DNA of 64,000 nucleotides, from sequence record NC_054910.1; one strand, written 5' to 3'. Shown in pieces: positions 8,773 to 36,695 of the stretch (within the stretch, counting starts at the first letter, position 1; each line of letters starts with the position of its first letter). This DNA is from Escherichia phage EcNP1. Below the pieces are notes generated by a model. It was not told the origin of the DNA. It saw nothing but the letters and a program-made list of their open reading frames with translations, and ran no database searches. Both the position numbers and the translations under genes were made by a program.

Positions 8773-9348
8773 TTAATTACCACGGGCTGCATTAGCAACG
8801 GCGTAAGCATACTGAACATTAGCGTCTTTAAACGTACCTTTAGAGGTATCTAGTTCTGCCTTAAAGCCGCCTTTAGTCATAACCTCGGCGAATTCTTTAC
8901 GGAAAGCCATTGCATCAAGACCTTTCCATGCCGATTTGTGCTTGGCAAATTCAAGACCGGCGAAGTTGACAGCCTTAGCTAATTTATTATCAATAACCCA
9001 TTTACCAGCTTTAGGCGCAAACACTGGGCCTTTCTGTTTAGAGAATAATTTTAAATTCCAGCGACGAAGGTCACCGTCAGCTTTAACAAAAGCTGCGTCC
9101 AAGTTACTAGCAACAACATCTTGAATATGGCCAAATTTAAGCCCATCAACTTCAATATTTAGATCAGTACGCCAGCGAAGTCCTTCCCAAGCGAAAGCTT
9201 TAAAGTCGGAAGCTTTTGTAGCTAAGTATCGTTCAATAGGGGCTGTTTTAGGGTCAAAACCATTTCCTCGGTAAGTCCACTCATCTTTATTAATGCCTTT
9301 GGCCTTTTCCACAGAAGCTTCAGCGATAAATTCTTTATACGTTTTCAT
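8773..9348 (-). CDS. ipIII: internal protein III (capsid-targeted, injected)
   Basis: 191 aa; N-terminal capsid-targeting motif MKTYKEFIAE; size matches T4 IPIII. Confidence 0.8.
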   Translation of the reverse strand: MKTYKEFIAEASVEKAKGINKDEWTYRGNGFDPKTAPIERYLATKASDFKAFAWEGLRWRTDLNIEVDGLKFGHIQDVVASNLDAAFVKADGDLRRWNLKLFSKQKGPVFAPKAGKWVIDNKLAKAVNFAGLEFAKHKSAWKGLDAMAFRKEFAEVMTKGGFKAELDTSKGTFKDANVQYAYAVANAARGN

Positions 9349-9369
9349 GTGTTTCCTTGTTTGTTTTGA

Positions 9370-9406
9370 TAGAGTAATTATACCATATTAATACTTAAGC
9401 GTAAAC
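9370..9406 (-). promoter_or_regulatory. early promoter upstream of ipIII
   Basis: minus strand GTTTAC-N17-TATAAT ending about 25 nt upstream of the ipIII ATG. Confidence 0.5.
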
Positions 9407-9409
9407 TGT

Positions 9410-9664
9410 TTAAGCTTTACCGCCAGAAATAATTCCGAAGTTGTTAAAATCGTATCCAATATCGTCAACATCTACTTTAGGGCTTACTACAACATAAGCA
9501 ATTTCACTACGTTTTGCATAGGTGTTTATTTCTTTACCATTGCCGCCTGAGAAAGAATACCCATTACGTTTTAATGAGCCAAAATCTTCGGCATCACCAA
9601 TGAAAGCTTTAACTTTAAATTTGGGGCCTTTGGCATCTGCTTCAGCGATAAATTCTTGATACAT
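9410..9664 (-). CDS. internal-protein-like (ipII-like)
   Basis: 84 aa starting MYQEFIAE|A, the IP capsid-targeting motif; AGGAAA SD. Confidence 0.6.
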   Translation of the reverse strand: MYQEFIAEADAKGPKFKVKAFIGDAEDFGSLKRNGYSFSGGNGKEINTYAKRSEIAYVVVSPKVDVDDIGYDFNNFGIISGGKA

Positions 9665-9676
9665 TTTAATTTTTCC

Positions 9677-10090
9677 TTAGTAAATTGATTTACCATAGTA
9701 TTTGTACCAAGTAGGACGTTGAGCAATTTTTTCATCTAAGCATGCTTGACTTATCGCAATGGACGCTTCGTCCGGGACATAATTATTACGAAATTCGGCA
9801 GGGATGTCGGAAATATCCTGGACAGTCGTGTCCTTGATTTTGAAACCACGTTTCAAGCATTCAGCGATTAGCTCGATTTGACGTAAACGTAAAAATTCGA
9901 GTTTGTCGTAAAAGAATGTTACGTGACCTGTGCCTAATATAAATGTTGGAGAGATTTTAAAATCCTTTACACATTTACCGTTTTGAACATGTTTACGGAC
10001 TGCACCAAATACGCGTGGTAATTCACGATACTCAGCCATAAGATGTTGGTCGGCCAATTCAGAAACAAGTGTTAAATTGATACGGGTCAT
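9677..10090 (-). CDS. denV: endonuclease V, pyrimidine-dimer DNA glycosylase
   Basis: 137 aa from [29 protein letters not shown], near-identical to T4 endo V as recalled; GGAGG SD; track ORF has a 4-codon upstream extension. Confidence 0.95.
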
Positions 10091-10147
10091 AATTTCCTCC
10101 AAGTAGTTGATGAATGTATAGTATCAAAACCCTTGGAGGAAGTAAAC
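10091..10147 (-). promoter_or_regulatory. early promoter with -10 inside a hairpin
   Basis: GTTTAC-N18-TACTAT; inverted repeat TTCCTCCAAG/CTTGGAGGAA flanks the -10; second arm is the denV SD. Confidence 0.5.
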
Positions 10148-10148
10148 A

Positions 10149-10951
<803 letters not shown>

Positions 10952-14927: not shown

Positions 14928-14953
14928 CAAAAAGCCCTATCATTTAGATAGGG
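14928..14953 (-). terminator. rho-independent terminator
   Basis: CCCTATC-N5-GATAGGG hairpin followed by CUUUUUG on the minus strand, downstream of the 14962 gene. Confidence 0.55.
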
Positions 14954-14961
14954 ATTTAAAA

Positions 14962-15525
14962 TTATTTATCTAGTTTAGTTATTATAGCTTCTGCGGCAGC
15001 TTTTAGCTTAGATGCAGTGTTAATACGATTTTTAATTTCAGTATACGCATCGCCAAGAACATCAAGGCTATCAGAATAAACACTTACACTATTGCGTTCG
15101 CTATTTGAAATAAAACCTTTAGTTTTACGATCAAAATCGGTGTACACGTCTTGAAGATCACGGGCAGCCTTCTTTGCATCATCCAATGCATCAAGAGCTT
15201 TATTCAAAGCATTAACATATTTTTTAGTGTCAAACATATTCTTAGAAATTTTAACAGGTGCACGTTCAGGAGTAGCTAAGGCAGATTTAGGAACATGAGC
15301 GCCAGATGCCAATTTCTTAGAAATTTTGAAAAACGCTTTATTGAATTTATTTTCTTGACTCATCGTAAAAGAACTATTATCGATGTTATACATTTCAATA
15401 GCTTTAGCTTTCCACTTAAGAAAATCGCCACGGTCTTTTGGGTCTAATTGAAAGAATACTTTAGTAAGATCTGCTTCAGACGGTAATTTTGCTGCTTCGG
15501 TCAAAAATTCGGCATAGGTTTTCAT
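14962..15525 (-). CDS. internal-protein-like protein
   Basis: 187 aa beginning MKTYAEFLTE|A, the IP capsid-targeting motif; AAGGA SD. Confidence 0.6.
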   Translation of the reverse strand: MKTYAEFLTEAAKLPSEADLTKVFFQLDPKDRGDFLKWKAKAIEMYNIDNSSFTMSQENKFNKAFFKISKKLASGAHVPKSALATPERAPVKISKNMFDTKKYVNALNKALDALDDAKKAARDLQDVYTDFDRKTKGFISNSERNSVSVYSDSLDVLGDAYTEIKNRINTASKLKAAAEAIITKLDK

Positions 15526-15612
15526 TTAAAATCCTTGAAATAATTTATCGGTTGGTTATTAATTATTTATTACTTTGTTATTATCCGCAACAGCATTCTC
15601 TATGTGATTCAA

Positions 15613-15643
15613 ACTAAAAAGCCCCAACCTTTCGGTCGGGGCT
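15613..15643 (-). terminator. rho-independent terminator (copy 1 of duplicated element)
   Basis: minus RNA GCCCCGACC-GAAA-GGUUGGGGC then UUUUU; 33-nt block identical to 16169..16199. Confidence 0.7.
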
Positions 15644-15650
15644 AAGAATG

Positions 15651-16094
15651 TTATTTGATTTGTTTAGCAGACCAAATGCGGTCTTTAATAATTTTTTGGA
15701 TGTCTTCAACATACTCTAGGTCATGAGCATGTGGGTTGTCTTTGAAACTATAAGCACGGGCTAACTTTTGGCCTTCGGTTTTGATTACTAAAAGCTCTTT
15801 AAGGATAGCTTCATATTTAGCGATAATTCCTTTAACAATATTTTTTTCTTGTGCAGCTTTAGGATCTGCTTTAGGAGCAGGTTTACCGGAAGGTTTTTCG
15901 AAAGCCGCACCAGTAGCAACCAGGCTTTTCCAGGCGGTGGTAACATAGTTACCCACAAAGCCTTCAGCTCTCATATCGTCGTAGAACTTGTACCTGGATT
16001 CGTCAGAAGCATCTTTATAAGAATATTTACCAGCTTTAATAGCAGCAGTTGCTACAGCGCGAACATCTGAAGCGGATGCTTCATTTAACACCAC
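15651..16094 (-). CDS. internal-protein-like protein, N-terminal capsid-targeting motif in a different frame
   Basis: track ORF starts at GTG; 29 nt upstream an SD+ATG opens MKSYAQF then stops; one extra T in the TTTT run would give MKSYAQFLNEVVLNEAS... Confidence 0.5.
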   Translation of the reverse strand: MVLNEASASDVRAVATAAIKAGKYSYKDASDESRYKFYDDMRAEGFVGNYVTTAWKSLVATGAAFEKPSGKPAPKADPKAAQEKNIVKGIIAKYEAILKELLVIKTEGQKLARAYSFKDNPHAHDLEYVEDIQKIIKDRIWSAKQIK

Positions 16095-16161
16095 TTCATT
16101 TAAAATTGAGCATATGATTTCATCTTATTTCCTGTTTTAATTCGTGATTTAATACACTACT

Positions 16162-16169
16162 ATATTTAT
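16162..16169 (-). promoter_or_regulatory. T4-type late promoter TATAAATA
   Basis: TATAAATA on minus strand about 38 nt upstream of the ATG at 16123, abutting the upstream terminator. Confidence 0.5.
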
Positions 16170-16199
16170 ACTAAAAAGCCCCAACCTTTCGGTCGGGGC
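16169..16199 (-). terminator. rho-independent terminator (copy 2 of duplicated element)
   Basis: identical hairpin plus U-run to 15613..15643. Confidence 0.7.
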
Positions 16200-16200
16200 T

Positions 16201-16511
16201 AAGCCTTGCGGCAACCTTGTCGGGGTTCCACCTGCTAAGGCAAGTGTTTGTACGAAACGCCGGGATTTGAACCCGGTTATTAAGCAGTTGACGCTACTCA
16301 ATATTTTTAAAAGGCCATATCTCGACCATATCCGAACGTTCCGTCAAAAACGCTACTCGGCTTACGGCAAAGATATTTCCTCGAATCGATAATTCGGTGC
16401 GCCGTTTCTGCTGTGATGTAAGAGGGCATCAACAAATCATAAAGATTTATTAACGCAATTCCTTACCCAGGGAACATCAGTCCGACGACTTACCGGTAGC
16501 GACCCGGTTTC
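16201..16511 (-). ncRNA. putative small stable RNA region downstream of tRNA cluster
   Basis: about 310 nt without credible ORF between the 16512 stop and the terminator; contains a tRNA T-arm-like CCGGG-UUCAAAU-CCCGG; position matches T4 species 1/2 RNAs. Confidence 0.35.
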
Positions 16512-16862
16512 TTAATATTCTTTTAAAGCATCAATTTGTTCACGGCGTTTACGCCATAAATCAATTGCTTCATACGCAGATTCAGCATTTCGAATTGGAC
16601 GGCATTTATATAAAGACTTGTGATTTTGATATTGTGTAGATAACGGAATTTTATCTAAAAGGTCTTTACGTTCAAAATATTCGTAACCATCTAAACCAAA
16701 TGAACGATTTTTGAGAAATTGCCAATGACCATATTCGTTTTCGACATAAACATAATCTGCATGCTGATAAAGTAAATTAATTACACGTTCAGAAATAACA
16801 GTGTCATTATGATTAAAATAGAATGTTAAATCATGAACTACTAAATAAACATTACCTTTCAT
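16512..16862 (-). CDS. hypothetical protein embedded in tRNA region
   Basis: 116-aa ORF; GAGGAAA SD directly after tRNA-Arg. Confidence 0.55.
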   Translation of the reverse strand: MKGNVYLVVHDLTFYFNHNDTVISERVINLLYQHADYVYVENEYGHWQFLKNRSFGLDGYEYFERKDLLDKIPLSTQYQNHKSLYKCRPIRNAESAYEAIDLWRKRREQIDALKEY

Positions 16863-18766: not shown

Positions 18767-19054
18767 TTACAAAAGATTTTTAGCAATAATCTTGAGATGT
18801 GCCGCAGAAATGTGTTTAGCTTTAAACAACGCAGTTTCTTCAGCAGGAGAGATAATGATTGTAGCACCATCCTTTTTAGCAGACCACCCATCACCTAGGT
18901 AAACAGTACCTTTGATTTCTTCGCCATCAACCAAACTAATCATTGGTTTACCTTCTCGTCCTTTATTTGCTTTAATAACTTCAGAAGTAAGAGTAGCTTC
19001 AGTAATAGTAGAAACCGGGGTAGTTGTAGAAGTAAATTCTTTGAAAGTTTTCAT
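18767..19054 (-). CDS. ipI: internal protein I-like (capsid-targeted, injected)
   Basis: 95 aa; MKTFKEF... with predicted protease cleavage after ITE at residue 19, consistent with T4 IPI processing. Confidence 0.75.
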   Translation of the reverse strand: MKTFKEFTSTTTPVSTITEATLTSEVIKANKGREGKPMISLVDGEEIKGTVYLGDGWSAKKDGATIIISPAEETALFKAKHISAAHLKIIAKNLL

Positions 19055-19126: not shown

Positions 19127-19811
<685 letters not shown>

Positions 19812-35148: not shown

Positions 35149-36695
35149 GTAACAATACATATCAGCACGTATCAAATGAATCAAAATATGTTAAATTCGA
35201 TCCTACTGGATCGAATTTTCCTAACACTGTTACGACAGTGCAGTCTGCATTATCAAAAATAAGTAATATCGGCGTAAATGGTATTCCTGATGCAACTATG
35301 GAAGTTAAAGGAATAGCAATGATTGCGTCAGAACAAGAGGTTTTAGATGGAACTAATAATTCTAAAATCGTTACGCCAGCTACATTAGCAACAAGGTTAT
35401 TATACCCAAATGCTACTGAAACTAAATATGGTTTAACGCGTTATTCAACAAATGAAGAAACGTTAGAAGGCTCAGATAATAATTCATCAATAACGCCGCA
35501 AAAACTGAAATACCATACTGACGATGTGTTCCAAAATAGATATTCGTCTGAGTCATCAAACGGGGTTATTAAAATATCATCTACACCTGCAGCTTTGGCC
35601 GGCGTAGATGATACTACGGCAATGACTCCATTAAAAACCCAAAAACTTGCAATAAAATTAATTTCACAAATAGCTCCGTCAGAAGACACTGCAACAGAAT
35701 CGGTGAGAGGAGTAGTTCAATTATCTACTGTTGCGCAAACTCGTCAAGGAACTCTCCGCGAAGGATATGCAATTTCCCCGTATACCTTTATGAATTCTGT
35801 TGCAACAGATGAATATAGGGGTGTTATACGTTTAGGAACACAGACTGAAATTAATAATAATTTGGGGGGTGTTGCAGTAACAGGTGAAACACTAAATGGT
35901 CGAGGAGCTACCGGTTCTATGCGTGGAGTAGTTAAATTAACGACGCAAGCCGGTATTGCCCCTGAAGGTGATAGTTCTGGAGCATTAGCATGGAACGCAG
36001 ATGTAATTAATACTCGTGGTGGACAAACTATTAATGGTTCTTTAAATTTAGACCATCTTACAGCAAACGGAATTTGGTCGCGTGGTGGAATGTGGAAAAA
36101 TGGCGATCAACCTGTTGCCACTGAAAGATATGCGTCCGAAAGAATTCCAGTTGGGACTATTATGATGTTTGCAGGTGATTCAGCACCTCCAGGTTGGTCT
36201 ATGTGTCACGGTGGAACCGTGTCAGGTGACCAATTTCCTGATTATAGAAACGTAGTTGGAACAAGATTTGGTGGTGATTGGAATAATCCTGGTATTCCTG
36301 ATATGCGAGGTCTTTTCGTCAGAGGAGCCGGCACAGGCGGTCATATTTTAAATCAACGAGGACAAGATGGTTATGGAAAGGATAGACTTGGCGTAGGATG
36401 TGACGGAATGCATGTTGGTGGTGTCCAGGCACAACAAATGTCATACCATAAACACGCCGGTGGTTGGGGAGAATATAACAGAAGTGAAGGCCCATTTGGC
36501 GCGTCAGTTTATCAAGGATATCTTGGAACTAGAAAATATTCCGACTGGGATAATGCTTCATACTTCACTAATGATGGATTTGAATTAGGTGGACCGAGAG
36601 ATGCTCATGGTACACTTAATCGTGAAGGATTAATTGGTTATGAAACTAGACCATGGAATATATCATTAAACTATATTATTAAAGTTCATTACTAA
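35145..36695 (+). CDS. 12: short tail fibre gp12
   Basis: 516 aa. Confidence 0.9.

Follow-up and report, generated by a model that had tools for sequence, protein, structure and literature searches.

Tagged, internal-protein-like genes in terminator-bounded, putatively late cassettes at the end of the tRNA operon of Escherichia phage EcNP1

Genes and signals between the tRNA operon and e.8

This report concerns a pair of small genes in Escherichia phage EcNP1 (sequence record NC_054910.1), studied within a 64,000-nucleotide (nt) stretch of the genome that is hereafter called the window. The starts of both, here named gene 1 and gene 2, carry the capsid-targeting tag of the internal proteins (IPs) of phage T4. 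Together they form an array of two putative late-gene cassettes, each composed of a leader with a promoter, a tagged open reading frame (ORF) and an intrinsic terminator, and each is independently present or absent in related phages. By its sequence, the window is a T4-like Tequatrovirus. Phage vB_EcoM_Nami (Tequatrovirus ecnp1) is 99.8% identical to the region, which is matched by 684 phage records, and an alignment of the window to Nami over 49.9 kb gives 99.91% identity. The T4 gene order is kept, with e.3-e.8 at the low-coordinate side followed by ten tRNAs, trna.2-4, ipI and 57B, all on the minus strand. The two tagged ORFs lie between the terminator of the rnaC/tRNA operon and e.8; a first-pass annotation of this DNA had described them without a strand, and all of their features are likewise on the minus strand. 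Gene 2, at the higher coordinates, is the upstream gene and gene 1 the downstream gene.

On the minus strand, the trailer of the rnaC operon leads into terminator A, the late promoter TATAAATA, gene 2, a second terminator A, an 87-nt leader, gene 1, terminator B, the e.8 promoter region and finally e.8. Terminator A copy 1 (16170..16203) ends the tRNA/rnaD/rnaC operon with a hairpin at 16177-16200, a GAAA loop and then U5, and copy 2 (15613..15646) begins 4 nt past the gene 2 stop codon. The two copies are an exact 34-mer, ACTAAAAAGCCCCAACCTTTCGGTCGGGGCTAAG, which occurs only twice in the window even when up to 3 mismatches are allowed, and not at all in 100 shuffles. For each copy, the predicted fold is a GC-rich stem of 10 bp that is capped by a GAAA loop and trailed by U5, at -20.3 kcal/mol (z = -3.6 and -4.8 for the two copies). 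The identical duplicated terminator that the first-pass annotation placed around gene 2 is accordingly real, with its length corrected from 33 to 34 nt and its coordinates shifted by a few bases. In T4, the homologous terminator A is present once, downstream of rnaC. Terminator B (14929..14953; CCCTATC-TAAAT-GATAGGG + CTTTTT), which closes the gene 1 cassette, is unlike A: it consists of a hairpin at 14935-14953 (-11 kcal/mol) and a T-tract downstream of gene 1, and its tail, GGGCTTTTT/GGTATCTAGG, joins the e.8-side flank that in T4 and phage e11/2 follows terminator A. An Rfam scan returned tRNAs only, with no family for the terminator or for rnaC/rnaD.

Gene 2 also has a late-promoter motif of its own, as had been proposed. 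This T4-type TATAAATA (16163..16170) abuts the first terminator copy, its first T being the last base of the 34-nt repeat, and lies 39 nt from the ATG. It is a perfect copy and is kept as far as Jiaodavirus; the GGGGCTTTTTAGTATAAATA junction is found in phages e11/2 and F26 and in Klebsiella phage KP01, and the SA21RB record annotates a late promoter at the same position. The window holds 24 TATAAATA sites against 9.95 expected, as suits a T4-type genome. For gene 1, the near-consensus AATAAATA in the leader (15564..15571) is the putative late promoter; its distance of 38 nt to the ATG almost equals that of gene 2. Phages with gene 1 only carry GATAAATA at this place, and AATAAATA is also present in the gene 2 leader of Mosigvirus.

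Gene 1 (14962..15525) is an intact ORF of 187 amino acids (aa) that starts MKTYAEFLTE/AAKL, the slash here and below marking a predicted cleavage point. Gene 2 (15651..16123) encodes 157 aa in relatives and is interrupted in the window, where the remaining ORF spans 15651-16094.

Interruption of gene 2

From the ATG at 16123, gene 2 of the window reads MKSYAQF and then meets a TAA stop at 16102..16100, and relative to that ATG the long ORF (15651..16094) occupies the -1 frame. Alignment places the cause at codons 7-8, where the window has a run of four T (plus-strand A4 at 16102-16105) and both Nami and SA21RB have five; without the fifth T, the tag no longer reads into the ORF that follows. 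The relatives' gene 2 is an uninterrupted 157 aa beginning MKSYAQFLNEVVLNEASAS. The placement of the gene 2 motif "in the upstream frame" by the first-pass annotation is thus explained by a 1-nt deletion. Its broader statement that two genes begin with the T4 capsid-targeting motif holds for both starts, with the reservation that the gene 2 tag is here out of frame with its ORF. The protein annotated for phage EcNP1 is likewise the tag-less ORF, of 146 aa.

No other record of the phage collection shares this deletion. Indels relative to Nami occur at four sites in 49.9 kb, and the one in gene 2 alone is frameshifting. A general homopolymer error in the assembly was rejected on this ground, since so few indels indicate that the assembly is not error-ridden; gene 2 may nonetheless contain a single error. 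Programmed frameshifting that would rescue the gene was also rejected, as CAA-UUU-UAA is no X XXY YYZ site and tRNA-Phe, if it slipped by -1, would have to pair with AUU. The same holds for transcriptional slippage, for which a run of four T is too short, and all relatives are in frame. In this genome, gene 2 is therefore either a pseudogene or the product of a sequencing error.

A separate set of frameshifts affects gene 2 in many deposited relatives at a mid-gene run, GAAAAAAAT (window ~15838-15850, A7 on the coding strand). These occur in both directions (proteins P0007, P0008, P0009, P0031, P0074 and P0076; locus L010 around 575-590) and give products that end ...QEKKYC or read ...QEKISLKEL... 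before the stop, with the tag, N-terminal domain and linker remaining. They could be homopolymer sequencing errors, or the tract could be truly hypermutable.

The tag and the predicted mature proteins

The tag of IPIII has been mapped, with residues 4 and 7 serving in targeting and residues 8 and 10 in processing by the prohead protease gp21, which cuts after L/I-x-E; the first 10 residues alone are enough to package foreign proteins (PMC9026906). The mapped residues Tyr4, Phe7, Leu8 and Glu10 are kept in genes 1 and 2 (the window's gene 2 being a 7-codon stub with the rest out of frame), in all gene 2 variants and in divergent relatives of both genes. As read from the sequence, the L/I-x-E motif at residues 8-10 takes the form LTE/A in gene 1 and LNE/V in gene 2, where a second LNE/A follows; in the window's own gene 2 the gp21 motif is out of frame. 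Some gene 2 variants are without the five residues VVLNE and read LNE/A directly, which makes ASASDV the likely mature N-terminus and gives the 157-aa form two tandem cleavage sites. The predicted processed N-terminus of the gene 1 product is AAKLPSEADLTK. Both predicted mature proteins are small, basic and lysine-rich (gene 1, 19.8 kDa, isoelectric point (pI) 9.46, 14.7% Lys; gene 2, 15.7 kDa, pI 9.34, 14.1% Lys), as are IPI-III of T4 (8.0-20.4 kDa, pI 9.0-9.65, 13-16% Lys).

In sequence and fold, the detectable resemblance to the T4 proteins ends with the tag. BLASTP of either protein against T4 IPII and IPIII aligns the first ~12 residues only, and homology to IPII/IPIII past that point was rejected when the hhalign probability for the gene 2 family versus the IPII family fell from 79% to 1.8% on removal of the tag columns. 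Pfam has no match for either protein, under conditions where the window's true ipI scores 2e-53. Of the IPI_T4 (PF11634) and IPII family (PF26874) profiles, the latter matches gene 2 through the tag only, and NCBIfam together with Pfam gives nothing above noise for either protein. Both fall into phrog_2280, a family with no assigned function, over their full length (about 1e-53). In the AlphaFold2 models, which are of low to moderate confidence (mean pLDDT, the predicted local distance difference test, of 61 and 73), a disordered tag is followed in both proteins by a small helical domain, a linker rich in Pro, Lys and Ala, and a helical hairpin at the C-terminus. A Foldseek search of these models against the PDB found nothing at E < 1, a BFVD fold search returned the family itself only, and matches of sequence profiles to PDB entries were dismissed as spurious and low-complexity. 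The search against T-even internal proteins and anti-defence proteins that the first-pass annotation had suggested thus recovers the shared tag, with nothing beyond it and no anti-defence match. In databases, every entry seen for either family is named "hypothetical" or "uncharacterized", save for the label "isopenicillin N synthase-like dioxygenase" on a member of the gene 1 cluster, which is evidently spurious. A literature search by accession numbers and locus tags found no mention of these proteins; IPs are not discussed in the Durham-collection BrxU paper, and the fPS-65/90 paper holds no proteome.

Distribution and exchange of the cassettes

Four states are found at this one site, namely no gene, gene 2 only, gene 1 only and both genes, and every junction falls right after the GGGGCTTTTT of a terminator. 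The site is empty in T4, T2 and RB9; in T4 the e.8-rnaC gap of 284 bp holds no gene, and terminator A is directly followed by GGTATCTAAGCC. Phages e11/2 and phiD1 have gene 2 only, and in e11/2 the e.8-side flank follows the second copy of terminator A. In Pu-Krd-SF2 and CT01, which have gene 1 only, terminator A leads into AGTTTGAATCAC, gene 1, terminator B and the flank, and precisely this arrangement would result if the window's two 34-nt copies recombined. The window, Nami and SA21RB have both genes. Of the 767 records matching the T4 junction, 60 were sampled at even spacing; by rough count, ~8 were empty, gene 2 stood alone in ~20 and gene 1 alone in ~3, ~10 had both, and the rest came from other genera or matched in part. 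CT01 and Nami are classified in one species, so that the states differ between very close relatives.

The terminator copies within a genome share variants specific to it (CCCCAACC for the pair in SA21RB, CCCCTTCC for the pair in Mosigvirus p000y), which suggests exchange between the copies. Deletions in T4 often end at GGGC/GCCC motifs, and IP loci are polymorphic with conserved regulatory blocks as flanks (PMC2839356).

The two genes differ in their apparent age at the site. The gene 2 family, found in 510 phage records, diverges by 70-87% between genera, and the gene with its terminator/late-promoter junction is kept in Mosigvirus and in one Klebsiella Jiaodavirus, from which it follows that its place at the end of the tRNA operon is old. 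In that Jiaodavirus, KP01, a different terminator stem precedes the same GGGGCTTTTTAGTATAAATAT junction and a gene starting MKFKEFLAE/ASSDVKAAA, which has only the N-terminal domain in common with gene 2. Gene 2 is thus probably ancestral and recurrently lost, not newly inserted, and the empty state of T4 would most simply reflect deletion between flanking terminators. The first-pass annotation had envisaged a cassette inserted or shuffled by recombination between the repeats; shuffling fits the four states and their junctions well, and for gene 2 recurrent loss is likelier than recent insertion.

Gene 1 is carried by 163 phage records with an identity of at least 88% in all, and for this reason it looks like a narrow, recent addition. 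An exhaustive HMMER search with gene 1 found a single credible distant relative, P0025, which is 31% identical and has a tag-like start (MITFNEFLNE..INE/A). On a T4-like metagenome contig, SRR28624380_555336 (L007; region 1419-2526), P0025 (start MITFNEFLNESEMINEAG) lies directly upstream of a gene whose domains, ART-PolyVal (ADP-ribosyltransferase) and DUF3990, recall the packaged Alt enzyme of T4. In the gene 1 of CT01, a deletion between AAAATTTCTAAGAA direct repeats has removed precisely the predicted linker. Past the intact gene 1 of vB_Eco_F26 (L010, 1692-1814) stands a 40-aa ORF that joins the N-terminus of e.8 (MENEMDNYGELF) to the last 28 residues of gene 1; it represents a local duplication, a rearrangement or an assembly artefact at that junction.

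Virion evidence and the internal-protein loci

T-even internal proteins are a diverse set with the tag alone in common, of which mature IPI (IPI*) inhibits GmrS/GmrD (PMC3012670). Ip1, Ip2 and Ip3 each inhibit a different type IV restriction enzyme of the GmrSD type, and several active GmrSD variants are without a known inhibitor (PMC12373910). By their tags, the products of genes 1 and 2 would both be new members of this set at a third locus.

Experimental evidence on particles comes from Yersinia phage phiD1 (fD1), which has gene 2 only, as g140 with a product of 157 aa. Gp140 was particle-associated at the strict threshold in liquid chromatography-tandem mass spectrometry of ultracentrifuged virions (PMC8309999, Table S3), which lends weak support to packaging of the gene 2 family.

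T4 has ipII and ipIII in the denV-e interval and ipI between 57B and trna.4. The annotators of Nami named ipI, ipIII and a 93-aa gene beside e as internal head proteins. In the window, the canonical locus (8773-10915) is rearranged, so that the ascending order is an ipIII homologue, an 84-aa tag ORF, denV, a 93-aa tag ORF and e, compared with denV, ipII, ipIII and e in T4. The 93-aa ORF (10149-10430, minus strand) between denV and e has a tag with tandem L-x-E sites (.../SILNE/A), like those of gene 2. A 4-nt overlap links its start to the stop of the lysozyme gene e, the Nami record calls it a "putative internal head protein", and neither Pfam nor NCBIfam gives it a match. The 84-aa ORF (9410-9664, minus strand), hypothetical in Nami, starts MYQEFIAE/ADAKG (ATG TAT CAA GAA TTT ATC GCT GAA GCA), which is the IPII/IPIII tag minus codons 2-3 (Lys-Thr). 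Counting ipI (18767-19054), six ORFs of the window bear a tag, and they are spread over three loci.

Proposed role and rival explanations

The explanation that best accounts for the locus, and which we hold with fairly good though not high confidence, is that these tagged late cassettes encode proteins that are packaged, injected and likely to act against host defences, and that they are shuffled at their terminators. Gene 2 would be transcribed late from TATAAATA and gene 1 from AATAAATA. The N-terminal 10 residues of each product would bind the scaffolding core and so carry it into the prohead, where gp21 would cut after Glu10 in gene 1 (LTE/A) and after Glu10 or Glu15 in gene 2 (LNE/VVLNE/A). 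The basic mature proteins of 16-20 kDa would then remain with the DNA and be ejected into the next host and, by analogy with Ip1-3, a host defence would most likely be disarmed as the DNA enters. The repeated terminators, with their GCCC...GGGC stems and T-tracts, would give T4-type recombination the homology it needs to delete, insert or exchange cassettes. Should the 1-nt deletion be real, the gene 2 tag would be lost and gene 1 alone would be delivered by this genome. Taken by itself, packaging into the head is probable; given packaging, an anti-defence function, which is argued from analogy, has about an even chance.

Several observations weigh against this interpretation. Both genes lie outside the two canonical IP loci (57B-trna.4 and denV-e), and a 2010 paper states that IP genes are absent elsewhere in T-even genomes (PMC2839356). 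A place at one of the canonical loci is a positional habit described in the literature and no functional requirement, and the site between the rnaC terminator and e.8 would, on the tags found there, be a third IP locus and an "elsewhere" of the 2010 statement. The particle list of phiD1 is permissive, with 113-137 of 277 gene products, DenV, lysozyme e and NudE among them (PMC8309999), and no virion, processing or injection data for gene 1 were found in the literature. Neither protein has detectable sequence or fold similarity to characterised internal or anti-defence proteins, and the promoter assigned to gene 1 is near-consensus only. Lastly, ip4-10 gave no reproducible hits against a wider GmrSD panel (PMC12373910), so that a role against type IV restriction is not to be assumed for every IP.

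Were the proteins packaged without a specific defence target, they might act as basic, DNA-associated filler, as charge neutralisers or as an aid to DNA packing or ejection. Their lysine-rich, basic composition would suit such a role, as would the simple helical domains and Pro/Lys/Ala-rich linker of the models, which include no enzyme-like fold, and the inactivity of ip4-10 on the GmrSD panel; moreover, in T4 heads the internal proteins contact DNA phosphates via lysines only (PMC3012670). Yet all three of the T4 IPs examined are specific inhibitors of type IV restriction (PMC12373910), T4 and T2 do well without either gene, and the presence/absence polymorphism and the 70-87% divergence of gene 2 resemble those of accessory genes in an arms race. 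We regard this alternative as unlikely. A little less likely again is an origin by tandem duplication of a gene with its terminator, with genes 1 and 2 as diverged paralogues and the repeat as the scar. Shared membership of phrog_2280 over the full length and the common layout of the two models would agree with paralogy, along with a weak hhalign match near the C-termini (IKNRINTASKL vs IKDRIWSAKQI), but the profile-profile probability is about 1% with the tag removed, and BLASTP between the two proteins matches the tag only. Gene 1 also has a different terminator and an unrelated leader, and each gene is found alone at the same junction, so modular gain and loss would be needed anyway.

The least probable of the rivals, to which we give very little credence, is that the MKTY..F..E start is a hitch-hiking 5' block for recombination or translation initiation, attached to accessory proteins that stay unpackaged in the cytoplasm. 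The 5' homology blocks of the type described by Repoila et al. reportedly take in the first codons, the phiD1 virion proteome is permissive, and the window's gene 2 has lost its tag, with the annotated EcNP1 protein tag-less as well. Set against these points, the leaders of gene 1, gene 2, ipI and ipIII are dissimilar as DNA, whereas the functional residues of the tag are kept in the protein even at 31-39% identity and across genera, and the first 10 residues of IPIII suffice for packaging of foreign proteins (PMC9026906).

The interpretation as packaged, injected proteins can be extended in a more speculative form, which we consider possible yet doubtful. The rnaC-terminator/e.8 site might be a third IP cassette site of Tevenvirinae, conserved from Tequatrovirus to Mosigvirus and Klebsiella Jiaodavirus, where terminator-delimited late cassettes are exchanged at GGGGC-T5 tails. 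Both families (tag, ~60-aa helical domain, Pro/Lys-rich linker and helical hairpin) would then be injected and would inhibit defences against which phages are not known to have an inhibitor, and candidate targets would include those GmrSD variants of Silas et al. that are active on T-even phages and insensitive to Ip1-10.

Other features of the window

A 116-aa ORF with no assigned function (16512-16862, minus strand) lies between the rnaD/rnaC region and tRNA-Arg, near the T4 place of the homing endonuclease gene segB, which in T4 is on the other side of tRNA-Arg. The set of ten tRNA genes differs from that of T4 in that Asn, Tyr and Met are included and Ile is absent. Relative to Nami, the 57B homologue (ORF 19127-19582) has an in-frame 9-nt deletion at ~19409, at a short direct repeat (CGATGGAACATATGGAACA). 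At 35204-35208, the 4-nt loop of a perfect hairpin, TTCGATCC-TACT-GGATCGAA, is inverted compared with the AGTA of Nami, a loop flip between two genomes that are 99.9% identical.

Significance and comparison with known systems

The best-known example of proteins that phages inject before gene expression begins, so as to disarm the immunity of the host, is that of the T-even internal proteins. The present locus adds two candidate injected effectors at a site that the literature held to be free of IP genes. Both families occur in hundreds of sequenced coliphages and phages of Shigella, Yersinia and Salmonella, many of them therapeutic candidates, and the natural allelic series of no cassette, either one, both and frameshift variants is usable for host-range studies. 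The locus also indicates that terminator-bounded late cassettes, and not early-promoter modules alone, are shuffled in T4-type genomes.

Genes 1 and 2 are like IPI-III of T4 in their tag (MKTYAEFLTE and MKSYAQFLNE, compared with MKTYQEFIAE in IPII/III), in the L/I-x-E site for gp21, in encoding small, basic, lysine-rich and non-essential proteins, and in their neighbourhood of tRNA genes, e and 57B. They differ in having no similarity past the tag and in their locus between the rnaC terminator and e.8 instead of denV-e or 57B-trna.4. In addition, IPI* has an alpha/beta fold, whereas a two-domain, all-helical architecture is predicted here. The polymorphic IP cassettes (ip4-ip10 and more; Repoila et al. 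1994 and Comeau et al. 2007, cited in PMC2839356 and PMC12373910) are also unrelated ORFs with the tag alone in common, vary in number and identity among close relatives, and have conserved regulatory flanks that are thought to mediate shuffling. Arbiol et al., recounting Repoila et al., describe conserved promoter and stem-loop sequences around two variable IP loci, and more than 30 IP variants (PMC2839356). Those cassettes occupy two loci with early-promoter flanks and weak, AT-rich stem-loops (PMC2839356), unlike the strong, GC-rich terminator with a GNRA loop and the late promoter found here, although the ip ORFs of 1994 may include a relative.

The promoter-early/stem-loop (PeSL) cassettes of the RB49/phi1 type are comparable in that one accessory ORF is bracketed by repeated promoter and terminator motifs (Arbiol et al. 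2010; PMC2839356, PMC4122927). They share GGGG/CCCC-rich stems with the present locus and, as recombination between repeats predicts, there is a relative with one motif and no ORF. PeSL cassettes use early promoters that resemble those of sigma-70 and carry early ORFans, whereas a gp55-type late promoter and a candidate packaged protein are found here. Furthermore, the 34-nt repeat comprises the terminator alone, and the adjacent late-type promoter is unrepeated, which sets the locus apart from a PeSL in the defined sense. The principle of shuffling is therefore already known, and what is new is the locus, the type of flank and the two protein families.

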